Made by a program: the position numbers and the translations under genes. From a virus (lineage: Duplodnaviria > Caudoviricetes), in IMG/VR virus record IMGVR_UViG_3300002185_000031, positions 10,628 through 74,627 of that record: DNA of 64,000 bases, one strand, 5' to 3'. A model generated the notes under the pieces. That model did not search any database. It had not been told where the DNA came from and saw nothing but the letters and a program-made list of their open reading frames with translations. Below are positions 1,693-56,478 of the stretch, in pieces. Within the stretch, counting starts at the first letter, position 1. Every line of letters starts with the position of its first letter.

Positions 1693-2748
1693 TCACCTCA
1701 CAAAAAACAGCTCCAAATCCATCTTATGCGTATTAGCATGGTAAACATGTGTAACACTAGACAGGCTCATATAATGGTCGATTTTGCCCCTAGAAAGGCG
1801 TATCTGCACCCCATCTCCCGCTTGTAATCCATTTATACCTAATGCAGTCAAGCGAAGCCGCCTCTGCGGTCTATTAAATCCCTGCAAGTGCAGATTAAGC
1901 ATATCACTAATTTCTGCCTCCGTCATATGCTCCTGCGCCTCAACTGTCAACTGCCTAGGCCACCATCGGCGCACATTATTACTGTCATGCCGCTGCCAGA
2001 CTTCACGGAATCCTATCTCGTCATTATCACGTATAACTTTGATAATATTGTAGCTGCTCTCGTTGATATTGACGTTATAAGTAAAACTCTCTCCAAAACT
2101 CTCATCACCTAACACGTAAGGTGTACGCAAGGCTTGCAATTCTCTCCACGCAATAGTCCCCAGCTCATCCCGAATCATATACTGTCTAGGCTCTGCTATA
2201 TGCGCCAATGACATACTATCCATTATCATACTGTAAACAGTTTCGCCCAAAAATAAATGACTTTCCAGTGATGCAAAACTAGGCTCTTGCACAGCAAAAT
2301 TAAAGCCTTCACTTCCTAAGCTGCGCACACGGGCATTATGCTCTGTCATAACGTGAGTAAAAAACCCGCTGGCAGTCATCCCCACCGCCCTGTATGCTGT
2401 TTCGTTTGATTGCAAAAAGTGAAGATGGTCAACGGCTCGCAAAACGTAAACGGCACTATGCCCGCCATGTTGGGATAATTCTATCACCTCAATAATTCCA
2501 AAAAAATAATCCGTTCCATTCACTCCGAAACGGATACGGCTGCCCTCAGTGATAACAATGCCCTCGGCGGTGATATTTTCTTTCAGCATTACCTCCAGCG
2601 TACCGGGCTGACTAGCATTTCTTGAAGTTTGCCATGTGATTGATTCCACAAGTCGCATATCAGCTAAATCAAGCAAAATTCCGCTGTCTATGTCTTGTAC
2701 AAATAGGGTGATTTTATATTGTGATTGGCTTAGTGTATTGATGATCAT
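1693..2748 (-). CDS. Baseplate hub protein (XkdQ/gpD-like)
   Basis: 351 aa; ITWQTSR..PGTLEV, FFGII, LGINGLQAGDGV motifs; lies between LysM and XkdR-like genes. Confidence 0.75.
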   Translation of the reverse strand: MIINTLSQSQYKITLFVQDIDSGILLDLADMRLVESITWQTSRNASQPGTLEVMLKENITAEGIVITEGSRIRFGVNGTDYFFGIIEVIELSQHGGHSAVYVLRAVDHLHFLQSNETAYRAVGMTASGFFTHVMTEHNARVRSLGSEGFNFAVQEPSFASLESHLFLGETVYSMIMDSMSLAHIAEPRQYMIRDELGTIAWRELQALRTPYVLGDESFGESFTYNVNINESSYNIIKVIRDNDEIGFREVWQRHDSNNVRRWWPRQLTVEAQEHMTEAEISDMLNLHLQGFNRPQRRLRLTALGINGLQAGDGVQIRLSRGKIDHYMSLSSVTHVYHANTHKMDLELFFVR

Positions 2749-2789
2749 TTTATCACCTCAATAAAAAACCGCCTTTTGGGCGGTTGTGG
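2746..2789 (-). repeat. 44-bp exact repeat (terminator + RBS + ATG), copy 1
   Basis: Identical to 4153-4196: ccacaaccgcccaaaaggcggttttttattgaggtgataaaatg on the minus strand. Confidence 0.95.
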
Positions 2790-2857
2790 CTATCACGCAT
2801 ACCAACATTCTGGATATTCACGCCTCCAAACGTTATTGCGCAATAGGACTATTTTTA

Positions 2858-3562
2858 TTACCATGAATCTGGTAATCGGAATACTTGACCAGGAAATATC
2901 AAATTTCCCTGTCGGTGCGCCCCTGCTCTAGCATGTATTACATCTTGATTCAGCTCATACAACTCCCGCCAATTTGCCCCATTCCCGCTAAATCTCTGCG
3001 CTATACCCCACAAAGTATCACCACGAACAACCGTATAAGTTTCAGGCGAAGACGGCGGCACATTAACAACAGGCGGCGGTGGTGCTTCAACAGCTATCCC
3101 TTGCGGCGTATCTATCATCTGCAAAGTCTGAACCTCATGCGGCACATACTCAATCAAATCAAGCCTATAATGGATATCATCAGGGAAAAGGCTATCAATT
3201 TCCCTATTACGATACTCACATAACACCATTACATTAGTTGCATAAGTGGGAATATCGCTGACAATAACCAGCCTTGCAGGCTCTCGGCTGCGTTGCCATA
3301 TATGCAGATAATCATTATACTGCCGTGCTGTAAATCCGCCCTCAATGTACCTATCTATCCAGCGTTGACTAAACTGACTGTCTATAGATACCGTGGCAAG
3401 TCCTTGAAATGATGGAGCGGACACATCGCCCACGCTTAATATATTATGTATTTGGGCTTGTGAGGCTCTGGGGAAGTCCAAACGGTCTACCAGCTCTGGG
3501 ATAATCAAACTCCCGCCGGGGAATCCGTGCCATTCTAAGTGTATGAAACATCTTCTTGTCAT
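2858..3562 (-). CDS. LysM-domain tail tube initiator (XkdP-like)
   Basis: C-terminal LysM: YTVVRGDTLWGIAQRFSGNGANWRELYELN..NLIFPGQVFRLP. Confidence 0.9.
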   Translation of the reverse strand: MTRRCFIHLEWHGFPGGSLIIPELVDRLDFPRASQAQIHNILSVGDVSAPSFQGLATVSIDSQFSQRWIDRYIEGGFTARQYNDYLHIWQRSREPARLVIVSDIPTYATNVMVLCEYRNREIDSLFPDDIHYRLDLIEYVPHEVQTLQMIDTPQGIAVEAPPPPVVNVPPSSPETYTVVRGDTLWGIAQRFSGNGANWRELYELNQDVIHARAGAHRQGNLIFPGQVFRLPDSW

Positions 3563-4155
3563 GACAACTCATCCCCAATCAACTTAACACCCAAATCCCA
3601 ACTCTTAACCTTATCATACTCATCAGGCATCTGCAACTCGCTAACCTCAACATTAAAATAAAACCGCAAAATCCCGTCCGAAGTATCTCCCGCATGTCGA
3701 TTTTGAGTAGCCACAATATCCCCCCAAGGCATGGCAATAGATGACAAAACCCGTTCCAAAGTCAGCTCCATCCACTCAAGAGCCTCATTAAGACGTGCCA
3801 CGACTTCCCGATTTTGCGGGTCTATGTTAATATGATAAAATAATCCAATCAAATACTGATAAAAATATCGGACATAATCCCCCTCACGCTGCCGCTGTAT
3901 CGTGTGCCTGTCAATCTGATAAACGTAAATAAAAGGAAAATGCCGATTGTCTTTTGTGCCGTGCGCAATGCCAGTTACAGCATCAATCTCACCTGTTTCC
4001 GTGTAGACGTTCAACCTGTGCACATTAGGAGGCTGTGGTCGCCATGTTCCGTCTGGCTGTTGTATCGGCGGACGAGCTATAGCAACCGTAGGAATCCACC
4101 GCCGAATTTCGGCGACTGTTGCGTTTTTTACGTCTGATGGGGATAGGATATGCAT
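3559..4155 (-). CDS. Probable tail terminator/completion protein
   Basis: Size, DGILRFYFNV C-terminal strand, and position downstream of the gp10-like gene. Confidence 0.5.
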   Translation of the reverse strand: MHILSPSDVKNATVAEIRRWIPTVAIARPPIQQPDGTWRPQPPNVHRLNVYTETGEIDAVTGIAHGTKDNRHFPFIYVYQIDRHTIQRQREGDYVRYFYQYLIGLFYHINIDPQNREVVARLNEALEWMELTLERVLSSIAMPWGDIVATQNRHAGDTSDGILRFYFNVEVSELQMPDEYDKVKSWDLGVKLIGDELS

Positions 4156-4196
4156 TTTATCACCTCAATAAAAAACCGCCTTTTGGGCGGTTGTGG
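4153..4196 (-). repeat. 44-bp exact repeat (terminator + RBS + ATG), copy 2
   Basis: Identical to 2746-2789. Confidence 0.95.
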
Positions 4197-38728: not shown

Positions 38729-39649
38729 TTATCCCAAAATACTCTGCTTCAACACCAAACTAAACATATCAAACTTCTTGTTGTTATATCTAAAACAAAA
38801 CTCATCAACATACCTCTGCATATACTTAACAGAAATATGATGGTAAATGCCATACACGCCACGTTTTAGAGTAGCCCAAAAACTTTCAATCGTGTTGGTG
38901 TGAATATCCCCATCAGAAAATGCTTTTGTGTGGTCTATTCTCAGATGAATAAAACTGCTCCTTGCTAACGGGTCATAACCTCTAAACTCATCCGTCATAA
39001 CGGTGTTGTTGTTCTCTTGCTTAGATACCGTTTTCAGTATCTCGATCAACTGTTTTGCCGTAAGGCGTTGCCCCTTATTATTGGGCGAAGTAACTTTGGC
39101 GTAAACTTGCTTGTTGTTCCTATCGACAACACCAACCACAGGTGTTTTGTTTGTTCCTCTGCCTCGCTTGCTTGGAGTGGGCGGTTCGTTGTCGTCATCT
39201 TTGCGGTTTTTCTTGCGTGGCTTGCCACCAACATAAGTTTCGTCAATCTCGACAATAGTGTCGAAAAATTCTTTTTGCTCGGAGTTGCCCATAGCTATGC
39301 GTATTTGTTGTAACATACGCCATGCTGTTTTATAGGTAACACCTATTTCTCTTTGTAGCTGCATTGCTGATATTCCCTTCTTACCATTCAGAAAAAGATG
39401 TATGGCATACATCCATTTGCGCAGGTCTGTTGAGGATTTCTCGAAGATTGTGTTTTTGAAAGGGGAGAAACAATTAACACAACTATTGCACCCAAATACT
39501 TTAGGGCGTTTTGTCTCTTGATATACTTTGGCAGAGCCACAATGATTACAGCATACCCCATCGGGATAACGGACAGTTAAAAAATGGTCAACAACTTTCT
39601 TTTCGGTTGGGAATTTTTTCATAAGCTCTAAAAATGTCATAATAATCAC
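38729..39649 (-). CDS. IS1595 (ISXO2-like) DDE transposase
   Basis: Zn ribbon CxxC..CxxC, VEIDETYVGG, VMTDE, HTNTIESFW..LKRGVYGIYHH..YVDEFCFRYN. Confidence 0.97.
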   Translation of the reverse strand: MIIMTFLELMKKFPTEKKVVDHFLTVRYPDGVCCNHCGSAKVYQETKRPKVFGCNSCVNCFSPFKNTIFEKSSTDLRKWMYAIHLFLNGKKGISAMQLQREIGVTYKTAWRMLQQIRIAMGNSEQKEFFDTIVEIDETYVGGKPRKKNRKDDDNEPPTPSKRGRGTNKTPVVGVVDRNNKQVYAKVTSPNNKGQRLTAKQLIEILKTVSKQENNNTVMTDEFRGYDPLARSSFIHLRIDHTKAFSDGDIHTNTIESFWATLKRGVYGIYHHISVKYMQRYVDEFCFRYNNKKFDMFSLVLKQSILG

Positions 39650-39707
39650 CTCTGTAGTGATTATATCATGATTTTCAAGCTATGTCAAGGGATAATTCAG
39701 TTAAAAT

Positions 39708-40997
39708 TTAACCATACGGAGCTTTTCGCCTATGCTGCGCTGTTGCGTTCATCGTAAAAATGAAATATCTCAATCCGTCCACCTCGTCGTCAGCCTCTTT
39801 TAAGGGCTGCTCTTTGCCATTAATATCAAGCCTATCATTCCAAACATACCGCTCTATTCCTGCAATTAATTCCTTGCAGCAGTCATTGATTTTTACCAAT
39901 CCCAAATAAAAGGCATCTGCTACAGCTCTAATACCCTCACTTACAGCGTTATCCGCTAGGCTCGTGGCATATTTCCCGCCGTTGCTCATTGCTATTCTAA
40001 AATCGGCGGCTGAGGGGTCTATTATGATTCTTTCAACGTTATAGCCATCGAGAAAGGTATTGACCTCACGCCGATACATTTCAGAGTTCATTTGTATTTG
40101 CGTTTTTCTGCCGCTGTGGACGTATTCTTTTATGCAATACCATGTTTTATCTGTTGCGTAGCCCCATAAGAGCATTACAAAACTGTTTTGAGTGCCATAA
40201 TCGCATGAGGCTATATATCGGGTGTAGGTTCTTGGAACGGTTGGCACTATGTTTTTGTTGCCGTTTAGGTCGGTGTCCCAATCGGGATATACACGACCTT
40301 GTGCGCGGCGGCGTAATCCCAGAATGTAACGGTCATACCAGACTGTACCGGGGCGCACCTTGTCAAGCTCTCTCGACAACTCCTCATCGGACACACTGAA
40401 ATTATCGTGAATGGTAAAATGCCCATAATTAAAACCATAATCGGGATTTTGGGCTTGTTTTTCAGCATGGATATTCAAGATTTCTTCATAATACCAGTGA
40501 CTTTCAGCTTCGGGGTTTAAGTCGTGGAAATGCTTAGGGTTTTTGGCTGACATTGTGCGATTGAAGGTCTCTTTTAGGGTTTCTCGTTCTATTTGGTTCG
40601 CCTCGGAACAATAAACACAGCCAAATGTTGCGCCTTGCAATTGTCTTTTGGCTCTGATGTTATTGCCACCGTATATTAATATGATTTTTTCCTCGCCATA
40701 GGCTGTTGTTACATAGAGGGCAGACCGCCCTTTCCATTGCCCCTCTCGGCACCTGCCCGCAAAGTGATATATAATGCCATAACCGTCACAGTCTACTATT
40801 AGCTGCCTTGCGTTTGCTACGCTTGTAGCCATTACCATGTGAAGACGAGCGGGGTTTTTTTCTATTGCGTGGCAAAATGCCATTATGTTTAGTACGTTTT
40901 TACCTGCTCTAACGCCGCCCTCCGCTACGTTTAACCAGTGGGTTTGTGTTTTTTTGTAGTATTCACGGGCTTTTTTGTTGAATGGAGCTAGGGACAT
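39708..40997 (-). CDS. terL: Terminase large subunit (PBSX type)
   Basis: Walker A AEGGVRAGKN, SEAN, DLNP, CDYG, IIDPSA, DDEVDGLRY. Confidence 0.95.
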   Translation of the reverse strand: MSLAPFNKKAREYYKKTQTHWLNVAEGGVRAGKNVLNIMAFCHAIEKNPARLHMVMATSVANARQLIVDCDGYGIIYHFAGRCREGQWKGRSALYVTTAYGEEKIILIYGGNNIRAKRQLQGATFGCVYCSEANQIERETLKETFNRTMSAKNPKHFHDLNPEAESHWYYEEILNIHAEKQAQNPDYGFNYGHFTIHDNFSVSDEELSRELDKVRPGTVWYDRYILGLRRRAQGRVYPDWDTDLNGNKNIVPTVPRTYTRYIASCDYGTQNSFVMLLWGYATDKTWYCIKEYVHSGRKTQIQMNSEMYRREVNTFLDGYNVERIIIDPSAADFRIAMSNGGKYATSLADNAVSEGIRAVADAFYLGLVKINDCCKELIAGIERYVWNDRLDINGKEQPLKEADDEVDGLRYFIFTMNATAQHRRKAPYG

Positions 40998-41122
40998 GGA
41001 ATCACCTCAAATCCCAGCAAAAAACAAAATCCCTTAATTCAAGCTCCCTCGTGGGTTTGCCCCTAACGAATAAGGAGCGAGAGAACCTAAAATAAAGGAT
41101 ATTGTCTTACTTTTGCGGAAAA

Positions 41123-42364
41123 GTCAATCACCCCACGGCTAAAGCCAGGGGCTTGTAAGTAGCCGAAACTAAAGCTCCTACGTTAAGCCAATTGACACAT
41201 GGCTTTACGGCTGATATTTACAGCCGCCACATTGTCCGCTGGGGCAGCGTACCCACAGGAAAGACAACAGAAATTATCCCTTGTTTTACGGTTATTTTTT
41301 TCAACATGACCGCATACAACACAAGTGCGAGAAGTGTTGCGCGGGTCAATTAAGGCAATCGGAACACCTGCTATTTTAGCTTTATAGCTAATGAATTGCC
41401 TTAACTGATAGAACGCCCACGATGATTGTCTGCTACGCTGTGACTTTCTAACCGTTTTCTCGGTACGTAGGCGAATGCCCGATAAATCTTCAAGGGCAAT
41501 ACCTACGCCGAGTGCCTTAGCCTTTTTGACAATCTGTTTGCTTATTACATGATTAGTGTTGCGTACAAAACGCTGCTCTTTCTTAGAACGTTTCTTCAAC
41601 AAACGCTTTGCGGATTTTGTGCCTTTGGATTGCAATTTTGCCCTAAGTTTGGCGTTACGGTTGCGTACAGCATTAACAGCAGAGCCAGAAAAGTTTTCGC
41701 CTGTGCTGTCAGTAGCAAGGTTAGCAATCCCAACGTCAATGCCAAGAAAATCATTACTATCTACTGGCGGTGCTTCTGGCACTTCCACAGCAAGCATGAG
41801 ATAAAAAACACCGTCTTGCAGAATTAAATCTGCTTGCCCACGAACACGGTTGCCATAAAGCAAGCCATGATGATACTTGCCAAGAACTATAGGCACTTTG
41901 ATTCTACCATCAAGCGTAAGAAGTGAGGCGTATTCCATGCCATTAAAAGAAAGTATGCGTTCGTCATACACCATAGCCCCAGTATCTTTGAAAGTATGCA
42001 GAGTTTTCTTATCTGCCTTATAACTTTCAGATACCTTGCCTATAGCACGAACAACCATTTGAGCGGATAGACCAAATTGTTCACGCACATCATAATAGCA
42101 AGCCTTTTGAAGTTTAAATTTAGAGAACGTTCCTAAGTTAAAGGCAACTTTGCTGATATGATTACAGGCTTGGTTAAATCGTTTCATAGTTGCAAGCAAA
42201 GAATTAAACTGTTTTTCATCTGGCACTAATTTAATTTTGAGTGTGCAAATCATCAAATCACCTCAAAATTATTATATCATTATTGAATAATAATGTCAAT
42301 ACATTTGAGAGAGGAAGCCGCTTTCCTCCCCATATCTAAAGATAGGGGCTTCTTGCGGCTATTG
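41123..42364 (-). mobile_element. Non-autonomous IS200/IS605 (IS1341-type) element
   Basis: Subterminal hairpins cccctatctttagatatgggg (left end) and cccctggctttagccgtgggg (right end, ending TTGAC); TCAC 5' of the left end; no tnpA. Ends are inferred. Confidence 0.8.
41183..42256 (-). CDS. tnpB: RNA-guided endonuclease TnpB
   Basis: RuvC triad LGIDVG / IALEDL / ADNVAAVNI; Zn ribbon TSRTCVVCG..CLSCG. Confidence 0.97.
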   Translation of the reverse strand: MMICTLKIKLVPDEKQFNSLLATMKRFNQACNHISKVAFNLGTFSKFKLQKACYYDVREQFGLSAQMVVRAIGKVSESYKADKKTLHTFKDTGAMVYDERILSFNGMEYASLLTLDGRIKVPIVLGKYHHGLLYGNRVRGQADLILQDGVFYLMLAVEVPEAPPVDSNDFLGIDVGIANLATDSTGENFSGSAVNAVRNRNAKLRAKLQSKGTKSAKRLLKKRSKKEQRFVRNTNHVISKQIVKKAKALGVGIALEDLSGIRLRTEKTVRKSQRSRQSSWAFYQLRQFISYKAKIAGVPIALIDPRNTSRTCVVCGHVEKNNRKTRDNFCCLSCGYAAPADNVAAVNISRKAMCQLA

Positions 42365-42383
42365 GTGATATTACAAAACGTCA

Positions 42384-43100
42384 CTAATCAAATGTCATCT
42401 TTCGCTCTGGCACTTCCCCCGTCAAAGCCTCCAAAACAGCTCTCTGGTTAGCCTTTGCGACTTCTACAGCCTCATTTGCATCTATGCCGTATTTGATATT
42501 GGATATCTTAATGCGGTGCATTGTTGATATGGCGTTAGTTTTCTGGGCTTGCACTTTAGAAAGCTCCTTATAAAGCTCCAGCATCCGTTTATCACGGTGT
42601 ACGCTGGTAACTTCTATTAAGTCGGTTGCTGCATCTCTATCTAAACCCTTTGCGCTGCGCACGGTTTCGGGTATCATTGCTATATCTTCACCATTTGGGG
42701 TGATTGCGCCTGTTGGCATAGCCTCTAATTCGTCAATCTGTTTCTGGATTAGCTTTTCTCTGATTTCATAGGCTTTTATCTGCTCTTGCAGGGTTTTGAC
42801 TTCGGAATAAATGACAGTTTGCGAATTATCACTGTCATTTATTGGCTCGTTTCCGATTTTGTCATTAATGACATTAATTCTTTTTGTCACTTTTGGCTTG
42901 TTGTCACGATACCTTTTGTCATTTTTGCGCCTATCGCTCTGTAATCTTTTAGGAGAATCGCCTTCCCATTGGTCAGTAGACTTCCAGTTACGCAATAGGC
43001 TTTCGGACGTATCAAGTTCTATAGCTATTTCCTTGATGGTCATACCTGATTCCCATAATTTAAAGGCATCTTCCCTCCGTGAATCCTTTTTCCGTGGCAC
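42384..43100 (-). CDS. terS: Terminase small subunit
   Basis: N-terminal HTH (AFKLWESGMTIKEIAIEL..LLRNWKSTDQW); upstream of terL. Confidence 0.85.
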   Translation of the reverse strand: MPRKKDSRREDAFKLWESGMTIKEIAIELDTSESLLRNWKSTDQWEGDSPKRLQSDRRKNDKRYRDNKPKVTKRINVINDKIGNEPINDSDNSQTVIYSEVKTLQEQIKAYEIREKLIQKQIDELEAMPTGAITPNGEDIAMIPETVRSAKGLDRDAATDLIEVTSVHRDKRMLELYKELSKVQAQKTNAISTMHRIKISNIKYGIDANEAVEVAKANQRAVLEALTGEVPERKMTFD

Positions 43101-47807: not shown

Positions 47808-48389
47808 ATGATTAAAGTTAAACAATTGCAAAATACAACTAAAATATTTTCAGATGAGGCATTTAATTCTCATTATGAGCTATATAAAAATTATTGTGTT
47901 AAATACAACGAGATTCAAGAAGAGTTAAAAGAATATGCGGGCTGTCCTGATGCGGATAAGAATTATTCACGGTATCGGGGCATAAAAAAAGAAGAGGCTC
48001 ACAATCTTAACGCCATAACGCTCCATGAGCTATTTTTCAAGAATATATCAGACAATTCAACAAACCCACAAGAGCATTTTACAGAGCTTGTACAGCGTTT
48101 TTTTGGTAGTTTTGAAGATTGGCAAAAAGATTTCATTGCAACTGCAAAAGCAAGCCGTGGCTGGGTTGTAACTGTGTATGAGCAGCGTTCAGGTGAGATT
48201 AAAAATATGCTGATAGATAATCATGATATAGGTGTTTTTATAAGTTCGTATCCGCTCTTAGTGTTGGATTGCTGGGAACACAGCTATATAATGGACTGTC
48301 ACAATAATATTGACAAATACATTGAAAAGTTTTTACATAACATTGACTGGCGTGTGGTTGAAACACGCTCAAAAGCCGTGGAGGTGTAA
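47808..48389 (+). CDS. Fe/Mn superoxide dismutase-like protein
   Basis: Metal ligands FNSHY, TLHELFF, LDCWEHSY. Confidence 0.92.
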   Translation: MIKVKQLQNTTKIFSDEAFNSHYELYKNYCVKYNEIQEELKEYAGCPDADKNYSRYRGIKKEEAHNLNAITLHELFFKNISDNSTNPQEHFTELVQRFFGSFEDWQKDFIATAKASRGWVVTVYEQRSGEIKNMLIDNHDIGVFISSYPLLVLDCWEHSYIMDCHNNIDKYIEKFLHNIDWRVVETRSKAVEV

Positions 48390-48392
48390 ATA

Positions 48393-48659
48393 ATGGATGA
48401 TAAATTCGTAAAAAACGTAGCTCTTGGTGCAATTCTAGCGGGTACAGGCTTGATTTTGCATTCGTTGAGTAATGCTCCAAAAGAGATTAAAGACGAGCTG
48501 CAAAAAGTATCTGGCGTTGATGGCATAGATGCTGTTAAACAATTGATAGATTCTAAACATGAAACTAAGAACCAAGAACATACGGAACATACGGACGAGC
48601 AGCAACCTAAACATGGGGAAGATGGGGAAGATGGGATTAAACTTATTCCGAGTATTTAA
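48393..48659 (+). CDS. Small protein with N-terminal TM
   Basis: VALGAILAGTGLIL; GGAGG RBS. Confidence 0.65.
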   Translation: MDDKFVKNVALGAILAGTGLILHSLSNAPKEIKDELQKVSGVDGIDAVKQLIDSKHETKNQEHTEHTDEQQPKHGEDGEDGIKLIPSI

Positions 48660-49234
48660 TGGGGGTGCTTAACATGAATAGTGGATATGATATGTTGCGT
48701 CAATTTTTAGCGGGCGAAAACCCTGCTGCGAATAATCAGAATCAAAACCAGAATTATGCACAGCAACAGTCTGTCGATACGTTACAAAAACCACAAGCAA
48801 GCAAACGGATATTTGAAATTAGTTCTAAGGATGATTTGCCATATTTAGAGCCTGATGATTCTGGGCAAAAACAAATAGCCATATGCGAGGCTGAAAATCG
48901 CATATATGTAGGGCGGTATAACCACAGCCGTAAAGCTACAGATTGGAGAAAATCCTATATTGAGGAAAGCGAAATGCCTATACCGCAGCCCGCCGATAAT
49001 TCCGAAATTATGAATAAAATTGTTGATGTGCTGGTGGGATTGAGCAGCAAACTTGATGCTATTGATGAAAAACAAGATAGCGTTGCGGCTGAAATAAAGC
49101 AGATTAAGAAAAAAGCGGCACAACCTACAGCTGCTGAATCAATACCAATAACAAAGTCTAAAGCTAAACCGAAAAAGAAAGCCCCGATTGTTGCAGATGA
49201 AGACGATGATGAGGATTATGAAGAGGAGGAATAG
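48659..49234 (+). CDS. N/Q-rich hypothetical protein
   Basis: Low-complexity N-terminus, coiled coil, acidic tail. Confidence 0.75.
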   Translation: MGVLNMNSGYDMLRQFLAGENPAANNQNQNQNYAQQQSVDTLQKPQASKRIFEISSKDDLPYLEPDDSGQKQIAICEAENRIYVGRYNHSRKATDWRKSYIEESEMPIPQPADNSEIMNKIVDVLVGLSSKLDAIDEKQDSVAAEIKQIKKKAAQPTAAESIPITKSKAKPKKKAPIVADEDDDEDYEEEE

Positions 49235-49237
49235 ATT

Positions 49238-49639
49238 ATGAAAACAAGTGATATTATCAGTTTTGCAATGGGTGTGCCTGCTCTTGCGGGATTGGCTATG
49301 AAAGCCAAGAATACAGGCAAAGTTGATAAATACGAAGCCTTAAAAGCGGTTTCTTCCCTTTCTCCTGATTTGAAAAAATGCACCAATATAGCACTTGATT
49401 CAGCAGATGCGGGGGAGAGTTTGCCACAAATAGCTGGCAAACTAATGAATGTTGGTGAAGTATCTCTGTTTGGCAAAACGATTAACACAAGAACTATGAA
49501 AGATGATCTAAGAGAATATGGCGGTAAGCCCGGCTCAATTTTGGCTAACATCCTTGATTGGATGCCCACAGCCCCGCCGGAGCAAGTCGTATCTTTCGGT
49601 GATAGCGCAAGCGATTTGAAAACTTGGATTAATAGCTAA
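49238..49639 (+). CDS. Hypothetical protein
   Basis: Coupled operon gene. Confidence 0.7.
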   Translation: MKTSDIISFAMGVPALAGLAMKAKNTGKVDKYEALKAVSSLSPDLKKCTNIALDSADAGESLPQIAGKLMNVGEVSLFGKTINTRTMKDDLREYGGKPGSILANILDWMPTAPPEQVVSFGDSASDLKTWINS

Positions 49640-49685
49640 TGCCATTGGCATTACTATAAATATCATATAAGAAGGAGGAACACAC

Positions 49686-50225
49686 ATGGATTTCACACAT
49701 GATGGGGATTATGTCCGTACTGGTGGAGCGGGCGGCGGTATAAGCGCAGCTGCAATGATGATGATGGCTGTTGTGGTATTTGTAATTATATTTATCATAG
49801 CTGTTATTTTTTTAGCCGCTTTTGCCTTTAAAGACAAAGACAAAAGAGTTGTTGACGAATACCCACGCAAAGAAAACAACATCGCTGAAATGATGGCTAT
49901 GATGATGGGCGCAAAGGCCATGGGAAACGATAATGGCAACTACAAAAACCACGCAGACCTTGACAGGAAAGAAATTCTGGAAAAGTTAGAGCATAATGAG
50001 GATAGGGCTGTTGCAAGACAAACCCAGTCTGAAATTGGTGCGCTTGGTTTATTGATGCAAAAAGAAATGAGCGACAATGAAAAATTGAACCTTACTAATT
50101 TTGCAAAACTTGAAAACCAGCTCGGAGCTTTGACCATGGGCATGACTACATTGTTGACCGAAAGAAACAACGATGTTATTGTGGACAAATTGCTGAACCG
50201 TCTGGCTTGGGGTAAGGCTTGCTAA
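49686..50225 (+). CDS. Gly-rich TM / coiled-coil protein
   Basis: AAGGAGG RBS; GGAGGG followed by a hydrophobic helix. Confidence 0.75.
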   Translation: MDFTHDGDYVRTGGAGGGISAAAMMMMAVVVFVIIFIIAVIFLAAFAFKDKDKRVVDEYPRKENNIAEMMAMMMGAKAMGNDNGNYKNHADLDRKEILEKLEHNEDRAVARQTQSEIGALGLLMQKEMSDNEKLNLTNFAKLENQLGALTMGMTTLLTERNNDVIVDKLLNRLAWGKAC

Positions 50226-50350
50226 TTGCTTAACCCCTGTATTTATCTAATTCCGATATCTAACCCGATATTGCTTGGCTGGCGCGCCAAATGTATATAC
50301 AAGTCGGGTGGTGGAGGGTTTGATAAATATATATGAAAGAGGGTTTTCCT

Positions 50351-51659
50351 ATGATTACTTGCAGAACTGGCGAAACTTTCTCAAGATTCGCTTGCCCTCC
50401 TAGACGACATCGTGACGTTAGAGCCACTGCCGTTAGGAATTTTCCTGTACAATGTCAAGCACCGAAGCCAATTAGCGGTGTTCGGGTAGTCCAAGAAGCG
50501 GGTGTTCAAAACGCTTTGATTCTTGTCGGAGGCGTAGATGCTTTTATGCCAAATATGGACTACAACCTTGTGCTGTCAGAAAACGTGATTAATCCCACAT
50601 CATTTAATTTCCCGGCGTATCTTTTGGTAAAGGCTGGAGATTTACACACATTGGATGTGAAAATGTCCGTTCACACTTTTTCTGCTAATCAGCAGGGTAT
50701 TATGGTAGCTTAAAAAATAGCCATAATGCTAACGGGGAAACCTAAACCTATACGGTATGGCAATCCCGTGGGAAGTCCTAATAATAGGAAACCTGTATCG
50801 ACTATCCGCTTGGTAGCGGAGTAGGGTTGCTATTGATACGCAACTCGAAATGGGTGTGGTGTTGCAACTGCAACATTAAGAGATAGTCAGTACCTATGGA
50901 AACATAGGATAAAACGGTTACTACAGCCAATTTGCAAAATCACCCAGTAACACGCTTTTTGCGTCATACTTTTGATGGCGTTAATGCTGATGACTTGTTC
51001 GAGCTTGCGCCAGATGACTTGTTGGCAGAAACTCAAACAAATCATTGCATACCACCTCGCAAGCCAGTTGTAAACATAATTCACCCTGCATCTTTGCAAG
51101 GTAGAAGTTATGTTACTATCCGTATTGATTATTATCAATGTGGTCAGTTCATTACAGAAGAATTTTGGTGGAATACTGCCGTCCTCAATAGTAATATTGA
51201 GGATTATGAGTGGGCAAATACGGTAAATTCTAAACCGAGGATATCGGCATGAAAATACCGTGGTAAGCAATCAGATTGCGAAAGGCTGATTGCCACTGTA
51301 GAGCGTACAGGGTGAATAAATATAATCCCTGCAAGAGTGTCCGCAGCCCTACATTCGAGGGTTAAAATGTACGCCGAACTATCCGAAAGGAATAGAAGCA
51401 AAGGATAAAAAGCCTTTGCGATAACATAATTGATATTATTCCAATCATCCGTATGGACACACAAACCCTGCGTGGTGCTGATTTGGTTAATTGGGTAGAC
51501 AATGCCAACAGAGCAGTATCTCGCGTGATTATCCCTTGCGAAAGCAACGACCGCGGCGAACTTCTTATCCCAGAACCTGTTCAAAACAGATGCGGACATA
51601 GAGGATTTGTCGGCGGCGGGCATAACGGATTTAATATGATTCGTAGTGCTTGGGCGTAA
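50351..51659 (+). CDS. Three-exon gene (50351-50623, 50917-51169, 51433-51659), 250 aa after removing two group I introns
   Basis: Exon lengths 273+253+227=753 nt, in frame; junctions read PAYL|VTTAN and EEFW|YIIPII. Confidence 0.7.
50624..50916 (+). ncRNA. Group I intron 1 (IA2/T4 td-like, no homing endonuclease)
   Basis: P4 ACGGGG/AATCCCGT; P7 GACTA(50800)/TAGTC(50884); P7.1 and P7.2; P8; GAAA-capped P9; P9.0 GT/AC before omega-G. 5' splice site less certain. Confidence 0.85.
51170..51432 (+). ncRNA. Group I intron 2 (IA-type, no homing endonuclease)
   Basis: P1 with U51169.G51178; GTAA-capped P2; P3 GTGGGCA/TGTCCGC; P4 ACGGTA/TACCGT; P7 GCGTAC/GTACGC; P9 and P9.1; ends ATAATTG. Confidence 0.88.
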
Positions 51660-51722
51660 AATTAATTGGAATAAGGGGGCGAGGGCAACTTTGCCCCCTC
51701 TTTTCTAAAAGGAGAGAGTAAA

Positions 51723-51917
51723 ATGACAGAAACATTATCATATAACGTGCCATGTTGCGCTATCCTAAAAGCATTAATCCTGTCCTATGCTGATAAGCAA
51801 GCCGTTACTCTTACTAATAACGATATTGACAAAATTATATTGACTATCAATCAAGAAGGACAAGAAAAGGCTTTAGCTATCGTTAATGGGTATTTGGCTG
51901 GTTTGAAGTCTAGTTGA
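51723..51917 (+). CDS. Hypothetical protein
   Basis: AAAGGAG RBS. Confidence 0.7.
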   Translation: MTETLSYNVPCCAILKALILSYADKQAVTLTNNDIDKIILTINQEGQEKALAIVNGYLAGLKSS

Positions 51918-51918
51918 T

Positions 51919-53028
51919 ATGGAAGTCTATCTCGATAATGCAGCTACGACAAAAATTGATGATAGAGTTTGGGAATACATGATTAGCCTAAAAGAGCATT
52001 ATGGTAACGCTTCATGTCCTCATGCTATGGGCAAGAAAGCACAAGAAATAATCGAAAATGCTCGTGAAATCATCGCTAAAAAAATCAATGCCAGCCCAAA
52101 CGAAATAATCTTCACTAGCAGCGGTACAGAATCAAATAATTTAGCAATACTCGGCTTTGTTAGTGCTAATATGCGCAAACGGCAGCATATCATAACCACT
52201 GCAATAGAACATATAAGTGTTATTGAGCCGTTAGAACATTTGAACTATTGCGGGTATGATGTGTCTTTCTTGTCTGTAAATAGCCAAGGGTTGATTGATA
52301 TTTCCTTGTTAGAAAATGAAACATTTCATGATACTGCCCTAATATCAGTAAGTTTGGCAAATAATGAACTTGGCACAGTCAATGACATTGCAGCTATAGG
52401 TAAAATTGCTAAACGCCATGGGATTATTTTTCACTGTGATGCTGTTACGGCGTTCCCGCATATGCCTATTGATGTTAAGGCTTTGGGCGTGGATATGATG
52501 AGCTTGTCAGCGCACAAGGTATACGCCCCTAAAGGTATCGGTGCATTATATATTAGCAAAGATATTGATATTGAGCCTATTGTATTTGGCGGCAAGGCTG
52601 AGTTTGGTATTCGTGCGGGTACGGAAAATGTGTTGGGGATTGCTGCTATGGGTAAAGCGATTGAAATCTTGGATTATTCGGCCTACAACAAAAGCCTAAT
52701 TTATCAGTTTCAACAAGACATTAAAATCAATGTACGGCCTGCATATTTTAATAATCTCAACCCCGAAATCCCCATCCTCAATGTACGATTTGACGGTATA
52801 GATGGTGCTTGGTTAGTACAGGCGTTATCTAACAGGGGCGTTTATGTATCGCAAGGCTCATGTTCAAATCGTGGTTTATCACATGTGCTTTTTGAGATTG
52901 GTTTAACAAAAAAACAAATTAGAGAAAGTATTAGGATTAGTTTGTCAAAATATACCACACAAGAAGAAATCGAGTATGCATTAAAAGTTTTGATTGAGTT
53001 AATAAATAACCCGAAAGGGATTATATAA
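51919..53028 (+). CDS. iscS: Cysteine desulfurase (IscS/NifS class)
   Basis: YLDNAATT, FTSSGTESNN, HCDAV, PLP Lys in SAHKVYAPKGIG, RAGTENV, catalytic Cys in SQGSC. Confidence 0.95.
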   Translation: MEVYLDNAATTKIDDRVWEYMISLKEHYGNASCPHAMGKKAQEIIENAREIIAKKINASPNEIIFTSSGTESNNLAILGFVSANMRKRQHIITTAIEHISVIEPLEHLNYCGYDVSFLSVNSQGLIDISLLENETFHDTALISVSLANNELGTVNDIAAIGKIAKRHGIIFHCDAVTAFPHMPIDVKALGVDMMSLSAHKVYAPKGIGALYISKDIDIEPIVFGGKAEFGIRAGTENVLGIAAMGKAIEILDYSAYNKSLIYQFQQDIKINVRPAYFNNLNPEIPILNVRFDGIDGAWLVQALSNRGVYVSQGSCSNRGLSHVLFEIGLTKKQIRESIRISLSKYTTQEEIEYALKVLIELINNPKGII

Positions 53029-53078
53029 ATGCCGACTGGGTAAAGCCAGCGGGGTAAAAATGAAAAGGAGTAGATAGT

Positions 53079-53789
53079 ATGGACAGGCACACAAACAGAG
53101 CAGCCCATGACGAGGCGAGGCACAATGCAGAAGAAACATTGCGCATGACAAATGCGGATTTGCGCAACCCAAGAATTGCTAATAATGCAAGACGTAGGCA
53201 CATGCTTACCACTATGAAGCGTGAGGCTATGGCGACCATAGCTGAACATGACCGTATGTATGGCGACCGCAATGACCGTCATAATGATGATTACAGAAAT
53301 AATAATCGCAACGACCGCTACAACTACAGGCATAACGATTACCGCAGTGATAACGACCGCCGCATGGACATGATTCATGATGCAATGGACGTAGTAGATA
53401 GAATCCTACCCCATATTACAGGTGAAATGGATGATTATACCGTAGAAAATCGCCGTGGAGTATTTCGCTCTCGTCCAGGGCATAGGAGAGATGGAAGAAA
53501 AACAAGCCCATACCGTGGCGGGAAAAAGTATCATGCTACTGCTGATATGAACAACTACAGCGATGATTATTCTGACGATTGGGAAGATGATGCAGAAAAT
53601 CGCCAACGTGCGGACGATATGGCAAGAACCGCCGCAACAGCAGCCGCTAATACGGCTCGGCGCATGATGGATGACCGCAACCGCTCTGACTATTATCCGC
53701 CTGTAATGCCAAGACAAGACAAAAACGATGACAGGCGCACGATGGATGAGGATGCTGCTCATGGGGCAAGACCAGGAACACGTAGATAA
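53079..53789 (+). CDS. D/R/N-rich low-complexity protein
   Basis: Repetitive NDR/NDY motifs; AAGGAG RBS; terminator at ~53799-53832. Confidence 0.8.
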   Translation: MDRHTNRAAHDEARHNAEETLRMTNADLRNPRIANNARRRHMLTTMKREAMATIAEHDRMYGDRNDRHNDDYRNNNRNDRYNYRHNDYRSDNDRRMDMIHDAMDVVDRILPHITGEMDDYTVENRRGVFRSRPGHRRDGRKTSPYRGGKKYHATADMNNYSDDYSDDWEDDAENRQRADDMARTAATAAANTARRMMDDRNRSDYYPPVMPRQDKNDDRRTMDEDAAHGARPGTRR

Positions 53790-53853
53790 TTTAATTTTCA
53801 AGCCCCTGTCATTGTGATAGTGGCAGGGGCTTGTATTTTTAGGCGGTGATATT

Positions 53854-54435
53854 TTGAACGCAATAGACTTACTGAATACATTAAACAGCAAATACCTATC
53901 AGCAGTTGACTTTCACCGCAACCTTAGCGACTTATACACATGGCTATCGCTTGAAGGATATGCTGCATGGCACAGCTATCAGATGGCAGATGAGCTATTA
54001 ATGCAACGCAAAATCAAAAAGTTCATTGCCGAAAACTATAATATGCCTGTTCCCGATGTTTACAATGGCAGTGTTGATATATTCGAGAATTATACCTCCA
54101 ATCTAAGTCGTGACAAAATTCCAGCAGACAGACGACTTGATATCATCAAGCAGACATGGGAAAAGGATTATATTGATTGGGAAAATGCCGCCCTTTCTGC
54201 TTATGAAGATATCGCCAAAAGGTTACTTGAATTAGGTGATATTGTGGCATTTAACTTTGTCGGCCGCATTATCAGTGAAGTAGCTGGCGAACTTGCCAGA
54301 GTTAAAAACAAAGTCATTGAACTGCAAGGGCATGAATGGGATATGCCACAAATTACAGCAGAGCAATTAGAGCTAACTGATATTTATAGCAAACGGCTTA
54401 ATGAGCTGCGATTTGGGGATGAGCTACTCAGATAG
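53854..54435 (+). CDS. Ferritin-like (four-helix bundle) protein
   Basis: FHRNL..GYAAWHSYQMADE..WENAAL..YE..EVAGELARV. Confidence 0.7.
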   Translation: MNAIDLLNTLNSKYLSAVDFHRNLSDLYTWLSLEGYAAWHSYQMADELLMQRKIKKFIAENYNMPVPDVYNGSVDIFENYTSNLSRDKIPADRRLDIIKQTWEKDYIDWENAALSAYEDIAKRLLELGDIVAFNFVGRIISEVAGELARVKNKVIELQGHEWDMPQITAEQLELTDIYSKRLNELRFGDELLR

Positions 54436-54651
54436 TTTGGGTTTTCTGTGTCTTAGTATAAGACATTTTTCACAAATTGCATCATGAAAACCTTCAAAGT
54501 CTTCAAAAAAATCCATACCATGGTCTGCTTCACCGCAATAATCACAAGTCGTTTCATATAGCTGAAAATATCCGACTAATCAAGTGTCGCATAGATGCAT
54601 ATGTTTATATTTACATGTTGCATTTATACCACAATCATCACATTTTTTCAT
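54424..54651 (-). CDS. 75-aa four-CxxC metal-binding protein with in-frame TGA (54580-54582); selenoprotein candidate or pseudogene
   Basis: AAAGGAG RBS; MKKCDDC..LCDT*L..TCDYC..ICEKCL..SE-TAG; hairpin immediately after the TGA. Confidence 0.65.
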
Positions 54652-54683
54652 TATAATTCTCCTTTCGATAGTGGAGGTTCAAT

Positions 54684-54818
54684 ATGTTTAACTCACCAGC
54701 TTTATATATTGATAAAATTTTTCTAAGCAATTATGCTCTTTTGCTTGTGGCTATACTTCTTTTAGGGCTTATTGCATTGTTACTGTATGGAATACCCAGA
54801 GCTATAAGGAGGCGTTAA
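54684..54818 (+). CDS. 44-aa single-TM peptide
   Basis: GGAGG RBS; YALLLVAILLLGLIALLLYGIPRAIRRR. Confidence 0.65.
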   Translation: MFNSPALYIDKIFLSNYALLLVAILLLGLIALLLYGIPRAIRRR

Positions 54819-54819
54819 T

Positions 54820-55077
54820 ATGGAAAACGAAAACATAAGAGGTGGATGTGGAAGTACACGGTGCTTTCAACTCTCTCATTTTCGCTGTCCACGATTCAAA
54901 AATGAAGTAATCCGCTTATTAGACAAGGTATTTGCTACTGATAAGGATGTATCAGACTTGCTTAAACGGATTGAGGCACTTGAGGCAAGTGGTGGAGCTG
55001 TATTGCCTAATATAACGGCACAAGCTGAAACACTTCCACCAAGTTCACAAGCGACTGCAAATGTAGTCGTAACATAA
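54820..55077 (+). CDS. Fibre-like segment 1 (coiled coil plus half repeat)
   Basis: LLKRIEALEA..ETLPPSSQATANVVVT. Confidence 0.75.
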   Translation: MENENIRGGCGSTRCFQLSHFRCPRFKNEVIRLLDKVFATDKDVSDLLKRIEALEASGGAVLPNITAQAETLPPSSQATANVVVT

Positions 55078-55098
55078 AAATAATAGGAGGAATTTATT

Positions 55099-55401
55099 AT
55101 GACAACGTGGAATTTTGAATTTGGAATCCCTTCTGGATTATCAGCCTACGATGTAGCAGTAGCAAACGGTTTTGTAGGCACGGAACAAGAATGGCTTGCA
55201 AGTCTTGTAGGCGCAGCAGGTACAAATGGCACAAACGGCGAATCCGCTTATCAAATCTGGCTTGACCAAGGAAATACTGGTACAGAGCAAGATTTTCTTG
55301 ATTCTATTGCGGCAACGGCAGTAGCAGATATTACTTTTACAGCCAGCGCAACAGCTTTAAGCCCAGGCAGTCAACCAACTGTACAAGTTACAACGGCATA
55401 G
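55099..55401 (+). CDS. Fibre-like segment 2 (collagen-associated repeats)
   Basis: GLSAYDVAVANGFVGTEQEWLASL; GESAYQIWLDQGNTGTEQDFL. Confidence 0.8.
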   Translation: MTTWNFEFGIPSGLSAYDVAVANGFVGTEQEWLASLVGAAGTNGTNGESAYQIWLDQGNTGTEQDFLDSIAATAVADITFTASATALSPGSQPTVQVTTA

Positions 55402-55413
55402 GGAGTTGATATT

Positions 55414-55854
55414 ATGTCAAAAACAGTAAACTTTGCTTTCGGCATACCGCAAGCCCCAAATTATACAACTATGTTCTGGTCGGGCTATGGTTCAGGTTCT
55501 ACTATCGCCGTAGTTTTAGGCGGTACGCCTGTGCCATTAATCCAAACCACCGCATCAGGTATAACCTTTTCTGGCAATGATGTATTGACCATACAAACCG
55601 CTGGAACATACTTAATATCTTATAAGGTAAATACAACAGCCAGCCTGTTAATGTCAGCGGCAGTTTATCAAAATGGAATTGCGATACCTAGCCTTATCAG
55701 TAATCTTGGTATTGCGGCAAACTCCTTTAGTGGTGAGGCCATTGCCATACTGTCAACAGGTGATACTCTTGAACTTATGCTTTATGGATTGCTTGACACA
55801 GCTGTGCTTGTAGGCGGTGCAGGTGCTACGCTAAATGTTATTCGTATTGCTTGA
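55414..55854 (+). CDS. BclA C-terminal (C1q/TNF-like) domain protein
   Basis: SGITF..LTIQTAGTYLISYKVN..FSGEAIAILSTGDTLEL..ATLNVIRIA. Confidence 0.8.
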   Translation: MSKTVNFAFGIPQAPNYTTMFWSGYGSGSTIAVVLGGTPVPLIQTTASGITFSGNDVLTIQTAGTYLISYKVNTTASLLMSAAVYQNGIAIPSLISNLGIAANSFSGEAIAILSTGDTLELMLYGLLDTAVLVGGAGATLNVIRIA

Positions 55855-55911
55855 TAACGCAAGCCCTAATTAACTTTAGGGCTTGCGTTATTGTGATAAA
55901 TTCAGTTCTTC

Positions 55912-56478
55912 TTGGAGGCTATTATGATTATCTTTGAAAAAACCCCCTATGGTGAAAGAAATATCGAACTTCAAGCAAGGCTTTTTGAAGATAGAATTAT
56001 CTGGCTCACAAGTCATATTAATGCCTTTAACGCCGAACAAATAGCACAACAAATGCAAATTCTTAATTTGCAAGATAATTCTAACATCAAATTTTATATC
56101 AACAGTCCAGGCGGAAGTGTCACAGATGGCTTAATGATTTATGACATTATGCACACAATCCGCCCGAAGGTTGATATATTTTGCGTTGGTCAATGCTGCT
56201 CGATGGCAGCAGTCCTCCTTGCGTCCGCAACAGGTACACGATATGCCTATGAAAATGCTACGATAATGATTCATAAAGTTTCAGCGGGTACTTTTGGCAA
56301 AGAGCCTGATATGGCTATATCGCTAGAACACACTCAAGCCTTAAACGACAGGCTTATGCGTATATTGGCAAGAAATACCAACAAAAGCATAGAGCAAATA
56401 TACACTGATACCGATAGAGATAAATTTTTTACTGCTAGGGAGGCTTTAGATTATGGTTTGGTTGATGTAATGATTTGA
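55912..56478 (+). CDS. clpP: ClpP protease subunit
   Basis: RLFEDRIIWL, YINSPGGSVTDG, CCSMAAVLL (Ser), IMIHK (His), DRDKF (Asp). Confidence 0.95.
   Translation: MEAIMIIFEKTPYGERNIELQARLFEDRIIWLTSHINAFNAEQIAQQMQILNLQDNSNIKFYINSPGGSVTDGLMIYDIMHTIRPKVDIFCVGQCCSMAAVLLASATGTRYAYENATIMIHKVSAGTFGKEPDMAISLEHTQALNDRLMRILARNTNKSIEQIYTDTDRDKFFTAREALDYGLVDVMI

Follow-up and report, generated by a model that had tools for sequence, protein, structure and literature searches.

Single phage genes that hold several group I introns, and group I introns that hold no open reading frame (ORF), are already documented (PMC10136302, PMC11878797, PMC2504315), and the case reported here is ordinary for phages. The orf142 gene of Staphylococcus phage Twort contains three such introns and displays exon skipping (Landthaler & Shub 1999, according to the passage on it in PMC10136302); polymerase and terminase genes of the Bastillevirinae carry two or three group I introns each (PMC11878797), and ORF-less group I introns persist in prophages of the Bacillus cereus group (PMC2504315). 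Prophage introns related to those of JCL1032 and ROSA fall into subclasses IA1/IA2 (PMC2504315), and the introns of JCL1032 are reported to be self-splicing in work cited in PMC6669764. The limits of the Rfam model RF00028 for phage introns have been discussed (PMC11878797), and both PMC11878797 and PMC2504315 comment on homology with introns of JCL1032 and ROSA-type phages or on limits of RF00028.

The gene described here lies in a 64,000-nt stretch of a phage contig, referred to below as the window. From comparison of its sequence with that of uninterrupted homologues, it is very probably a conserved phage gene (261 aa) split by two independently acquired, endonuclease-free IA-type group I introns. 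It resembles orf142 in that several introns of the self-splicing subgroup IA are located within one phage protein gene; however, in Twort a 23-nt exon is flanked by two close paralogues, introns 2 and 3, whereas here two unrelated, predicted introns surround a 253-nt exon. The closest named relative of intron 2 is the terminase intron of Lactobacillus phage JCL1032 (EU409559, joined CDS ORF5), with 73% identity over 177 nt. Also ORF-less (226 nt), it shares with intron 2 the P1 3' strand, P3-P9, a conserved 14-nt hairpin loop and the 3' tail, and differs in its terminase host gene, the absence of the P2 hairpin, a stronger, 6-bp P1 and a 5-bp P10. Intron 1 is similar to the T4 td-type IA2 introns (RF00028) in its GACUA/UAGUC P7, the presence of P7.1 and P7.2, a near-consensus J8/7 and a GNRA P9, but has no endonuclease ORF; at the DNA level its closest relatives lie in topoisomerase genes of Lactococcus and Enterococcus phages. 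As in the Bastillevirinae and B. cereus group cases, introns without a full endonuclease gene persist and highly conserved sites are targeted; the host genes there are those of DNA polymerase, terminase, RNR and tape measure, whereas here the family is uncharacterised.

Exons and predicted product

The initial annotation described one gene with two different ORF-less introns, the removal of which leaves a continuous protein, and this description held once one boundary had been moved by 33 nt. The features of the locus are as follows.

50337 to 50342, + strand: Shine-Dalgarno-like AAGAGG, 8 nt 5' of the ATG at 50351 (direct reading of the sequence)
50351 to 50656, + strand: exon 1, 306 nt, 102 codons, last bases ...TTGGAT
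50657 to 50916, + strand: intron 1, 260-nt ORF-less group I intron, IA, T4 td-like, last base G50916
50917 to 51169, + strand: exon 2, 253 nt (phmmer E 1.7e-12 to P0001, BLASTP E 4e-22)
51170 to 51432, + strand: intron 2, 263-nt ORF-less group I intron of the JCL1032/Staphylococcus-phage lineage, last base G51432
51433 to 51659, + strand: exon 3, 227 nt with TAA stop, aligned to P0001 residues 206-272
51674 to 51699, + strand: terminator-like hairpin, 11-bp stem then a T run, 15 nt past the stop (consensus scan, pattern match only)

An alternative ATG upstream, at 50333, has no comparable Shine-Dalgarno site. Unspliced, the gene consists of three fragment ORFs of 126, 106 and 68 aa. The reference homologue P0001, an uninterrupted protein of 287 aa, was found by phmmer with exon 2. 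Exons 1 and 2 match its residues 44-105 and about 117-204, with exon 3 following in the same order, and precise removal of both introns yields a conserved continuous frame (786 nt, 261 aa) which is colinear with P0001 and its family. The spliced product is 39% identical to P0001 end to end, and the alignment is gap-free at both junctions.

It is in the position of the first junction that our results depart from the initial annotation, which had intron 1 running from 50624 to 50916 (293 nt), a junction ..TATCTT/GTTACT.. and a product of 250 aa. The 3' end at 50916 is correct; the 5' site lies after 50656 and not after 50623. In P0001, eleven residues separate the exon-1 and exon-2 matches, and the window encodes the same eleven in frame at 50624-50656. 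This stretch is in frame with exon 1, stop-free and colinear with the motif K-x-G-D-L-H-T-L, which is invariant in the family and its most conserved; on these grounds a reading of 50624-50656 as a core-less mini-intron was rejected. In a tblastx comparison with L010, the DNA of P0001, homology runs until about 50659 and is found again from 50917. Since 50624-50656 is coding, intron 1 comprises 50657-50916 and has a length of 260 rather than 293 nt, and alignment with uninterrupted homologues gives a product of 261 rather than 250 aa. The boundaries 50656/50657 and 50916/50917 are the sole pair at which the frame is kept, a U precedes the 5' site and the intron ends in G, and the homologues place the predicted junction 1 at ...TTGGAT joined to GTTACT.... 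The P1 initially drawn for intron 1 (...ATCTT with GAGAT at 50637-50641) is a chance complementarity within coding sequence and was ruled out by homology.

The limits first given for intron 2, 51170-51432, proved exact: the homologues confirm junction 2, and the covariance-model match described below ends at 51432. Predicted junction 2 is ...TTTTGGT joined to ATATTATT..., with a Tyr codon divided by the intron (T in exon 2, AT in exon 3); the residues at this point are W-Y-I-I-P in the window and F-Y-I-I-P in the family.

Intron 1

The helices of intron 1 are listed below.

50652-50657 with 50664-50669: P1, 5-6 bp, U50656.G50665 at the splice site
50800-50804 with 50884-50888: P7, GACUA/UAGUC
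50805-50820: P7.1
50826-50844: P7.2
50860-50875: P8
50893-50908: P9, GAAA loop

A scan of the whole window with Rfam returned one match only, that of RF00028 to intron 1 (60 bits, E 1e-12, positions 50672-50909, full model 1-253), against a gathering cut-off of 50 bits. The P7 sequences, the P7.1 and P7.2 hairpins and the GNRA loop of P9 appear in the RF00028 alignment as they had been described; P7.1 and P7.2 form a 44-nt insertion between P7 and P3', and J8/7 is near consensus. P7 is clear, whereas the assignment of P2 and P3, and with it the partner of P3, is ambiguous: non-standard P3 pairs are flagged in the Rfam alignment, and the minimum free energy (MFE) fold pairs otherwise. The folding z-score is -4.0, and the boundaries are those set by protein alignment with the homologues. 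The 3' half of the intron matches, at 74-75% identity, the DNA between the parts of split topoisomerase genes in Lactococcus AM-type phages, in which an additional ORF is situated 5' of the matching stretch.

Intron 2

The following helices were assigned to intron 2.

51167-51171 with 51176-51180: P1, U51169.G51178
51183-51202: P2
51210-51215 with 51339-51344: P3
51220-51224 with 51257-51261: P4
51235-51247: P5
51267-51293: P6
51303-51308 with 51369-51374: P7
51308-51331: post-P7 hairpin
51345-51363: P8
51379-51395: P9
51398-51419: terminal hairpin

A search with RF00028 had been proposed as a check of both introns. It succeeded for intron 1, as given above, and failed for intron 2, which was without a match even at E <= 10 and hence below the gathering cut-off. 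This failure says little, since the same model (E <= 0.1) also misses the annotated terminase intron of JCL1032, as it does the AM1 locus, and is thus a matter of model coverage.

Strong support for the core helices of intron 2, including the P3/P7 pseudoknot, came from covariation. Eight contiguous cores of the intron-2 type were aligned (alignment A3), and a structure of 48 pairs comprising P3, P4, P6, P7, the post-P7 hairpin, P8, P9 and the terminal hairpin was scored on them. As many as 93% of the cells were paired, compared to 26-44% when the partners were slid; P3, P4, P6 and P7 were paired in 100%, and compensatory changes on both sides occurred in 31 of the 48 pairs. None of 500 shuffled controls reached the observed values. 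A covariance model, R1, was built (from alignment A4) on the relatives in seven other phages, the window being left out. In the window it gave a single match, at 51208-51432 (188 bits, E about 1e-48), which covers the full model, ends at the last G and contains zero non-standard pairs. The MFE fold of intron 2 (z -4.6) regains P1-P9, including the P1 hairpin with U51169.G51178, and both the P7 and the U.G pair of P1 are as originally described. The presence of two separate group I cores, also part of the initial annotation, is thus borne out by the 60-bit RF00028 match of intron 1 and by the homology, covariation and independent model R1 of intron 2.

The P1 of intron 2, of only 4-5 bp, is weaker than in the relatives, and its P10 is imperfect and offset by one base; because of this weak P1 and offset P10, splicing could be inefficient. 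The relatives share the 3' strand of P1, which pairs with a 5' exon that ends in GGU. Three stretches of the window are unpaired and nonetheless invariant across all intron-2 relatives in A3 and A4, namely 51313-51326 (the 14-nt post-P7 loop), 51405-51412 (an A-rich loop, in the terminal hairpin) and 51420-51426 (in the 3' tail); they probably make tertiary contacts.

Both introns had been called endonuclease-free, and the search for such genes led to the same result. The longest ORF on the sense strand of either intron has 32 aa, and no homing endonuclease ORF is present; the antisense ORFs overlapping the introns and the neighbouring 64-aa ORF downstream contain no Pfam domain.

Host gene family

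The initial annotation treated the case as unusual and the gene as an unknown island gene; the gene belongs to a conserved phage family. The comparison with intron-less homologues that had been suggested yielded about 45 of them, of 270-300 aa, all uninterrupted and continuous across both junctions. The family counts at least 27 database proteins, and IMG/VR and JGI metagenomes supplied 19 distinct loci. In each of the 19 distinct loci fetched, one unbroken match spans both sites and neither intron is present, and both are likewise absent from the 27 uninterrupted family proteins in the database. The two insertion sites are within the most conserved, invariant motifs of the family, and insertion into such motifs is the usual habit of homing introns. 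The gene of P0001 is uninterrupted in its DNA, and the genes upstream of it are syntenic with those in the window; on long contigs the family gene has tail/baseplate genes on one side and recombination genes (RecT/YqaJ or ERF) on the other.

Intron 1 was found at its site only in the gene of the window. For intron 2 the results point to one further occurrence, in the contig of protein P0003 (ENA sample ERZ27257345), in which the SOD gene is also upstream and intron 1 is absent. The last seven residues of P0003 are identical to those produced in the window by reading through into intron 2, and a related intron is therefore probably present at the intron-2 site. Judging by these residues, intron 2 or a close relative probably occupies the same site in this one other syntenic phage contig. 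The P0003 contig has genes at 2739-3410 and 3527-4156, and the split copy is followed by a 209-aa ORF on the opposite strand, which could be an endonuclease. Other doubly split copies of the family were absent from the protein database within the sensitivity of a word-based search, and scans of viral contigs for close relatives with each exon gave zero matches.

As to the function of the protein, searches with the exons and with full-length homologues detected no Pfam or PHROG family, and a profile search of PDB sequences with the host family gave no match. The AlphaFold model of P0001 is mediocre (pLDDT 65, pTM 0.62); with it, Foldseek found no match at E <= 0.001, and the best VIA-align hit had a Z of 3.1, nothing usable. 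An ESM Atlas search for the host protein likewise gave no usable match. A 7017-aa phmmer match, P0002, was rejected as a homologue, being an axolotl protein with a profile comparison probability of 0.04.

Relatives of intron 2 in other phages

Bases 82-263 of intron 2 are 68-73% identical, over about 180 nt, to 39 phage records, and the best match (E 4e-18) is the intron within the joined terminase CDS of JCL1032. These relatives lie inside split terminase, helicase, polymerase and tail genes: in addition to JCL1032, they were found in the helicase of a crAss-like phage, in the terminases of phages from Staphylococcus and Mammaliicoccus, in the terminase of a second crAss-like phage, and in the DNA polymerases of Leptolyngbya and Alicyclobacillus phages. 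In several of the records an ORF annotated as LAGLIDADG, HNH or 'endonuclease' ends at the start of the match, and in all relatives similarity ends just past the conserved 3' tail with its final G, which corresponds to 51432. When the P1 and last-G rules were applied to JCL1032 as a control, they rebuilt an open terminase of 602 aa. Introns 1 and 2 themselves are unrelated in sequence, their relatives occupy unrelated genes, and no further copies of either were found in the 74.6-kb contig.

In crAss-like phage cr118_1 (MT774379, locus L004), an endonuclease-free member of the intron-2 family at 1066-1420 splits the DNA helicase gene, and in cr131_1 (locus L012) another such member follows a terminase fragment, at about 572-774; the annotation in both places is none. 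The terminase gene of Staphylococcus phage SA2 (MH356730, locus L008) seems to be interrupted twice. The first insert, 1146-1374, is a 229-nt ORF-less intron of the intron-2 family; the second, at about 1440-2300, comes after a short exon and has a 198-aa ORF inside. With the first intron removed, the frame continues briefly and then meets a stop.

Origin and possible roles of the introns

The introns are proposed to be selfish or neutral elements that inserted into the two motifs with the highest conservation in the gene, and that either lost their endonuclease genes or came without them. After transcription each ribozyme would fold separately, P1 would offer a U.G pair at U50656 (intron 1) or U51169 (intron 2), and exogenous guanosine would attack at the 5' splice site; the released 5' exon would then attack after the terminal G (50916 or 51432), ligating the exons. 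The open and conserved state of the three exons makes the gene look functional, an argument for working splicing; the intact cores, together with the intact conserved exons, argue that both introns still splice. We infer that the two do splice and that they probably have no regulatory role. One scenario contrary to this is that the introns are decaying relics, one or both of which no longer splice, in a pseudogene yielding at most the fragments of 126, 106 and 68 aa. It would fit with the lack of an endonuclease to maintain them, the short P1 and imperfect P10 of intron 2, the accessory nature of the gene and the lack of another doubly split copy in the database. However, the core helices are all intact, R1 aligns without a non-standard pair, intron 1 exceeds the RF00028 cut-off, and an open frame with its invariant residues kept over 261 codons is not expected after a long-lost splicing activity. 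We consequently consider decay unlikely.

A regulatory explanation had been put forward in the initial annotation, in the form of a double conditional switch by which no protein is made unless GTP, Mg or the physiological state (such as dormancy) permits both ribozymes to splice. That group I splicing needs guanosine and Mg is a general consideration in its favor; serial introns would multiply any inefficiency, the P1 of intron 2 is weak, and mutualistic roles of introns are discussed in reviews (PMC3073962). Nevertheless, no sensor or aptamer-like element, alternative pairing or extra conserved domain was found: the Rfam scan of the whole window shows an intron only, and every helix of intron 2 belongs to the core shared by its family. 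The gene works without the introns, as they are missing from 19 loci and 27 proteins, and the relatives of the two introns differ and are located in unrelated genes, a pattern of mobile elements. The lack of introns in 19 of 19 loci is as would be expected of sporadic selfish insertions and not of a built-in regulator, and a switch of this kind appears highly improbable. [quoted passage not shown] In Twort orf142 and in the terminase of SIOphi, tandem group I introns are reported to cause the skipping of an exon (PMC10136302, PMC11878797), but the exons in the documented natural cases are of 23-34 nt and exon 2 has 253 nt; in addition, the two introns are unrelated in sequence, and the product would be frame-shifted, with a stop after 21 codons, and only 123 aa long. 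More broadly, it is very unlikely that the two ORF-less ribozymes gate or diversify expression, for instance by splicing that depends on the state of the host or by the 123-aa N-terminal variant that skipping of exon 2 would yield; if they did, a phage would possess a natural control device made of two ribozymes.

With two selfish or neutral insertions as the preferred reading, the value of the case is mainly in annotation and method, and the general understanding of group I introns is unchanged by it. In the annotation, a single 261-aa gene with two introns should replace the three fragment ORFs, and an uncharacterised but conserved gene family joins the list of intron targets; with what appear to be natural variants of zero, one and two introns, it should be useful for studies of intron gain. 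RF00028 misses a widespread lineage of phage introns, present in JCL1032 and in Staphylococcus, Clostridioides and crAss-like phages, and owing to this gap many split genes in deposited phage genomes remain annotated as fragments or 'none'.

Genomic setting

The phage contig to which the window belongs (IMG/VR, 74.6 kb) is a single metagenomic assembly with an estimated completeness of about 84%. The window codes for tail sheath, baseplate J, portal and terminase proteins and is thus that of a myovirus. The relatives of the introns are mostly from Bacillota phages, which is consistent with a Bacillota host. The split gene is found within a rightward gene block (47808-56478, + strand), with an Fe/Mn superoxide dismutase (SOD) gene upstream and, downstream, genes for a class-V aminotransferase (cysteine desulfurase-like), a BclA C-terminal-domain protein and ClpP.

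Elsewhere in the window, the terminase large-subunit gene (39708-40997, - strand, in the region 38729-43100) lies between two different transposase-type genes. An IS605 OrfB/TnpB (Cas12f-like) gene at 41183-42256 separates it from the small-subunit gene (42384-43100), and on its other flank there is an IS1595-type DDE transposase gene at 38729-39649, on the - strand.
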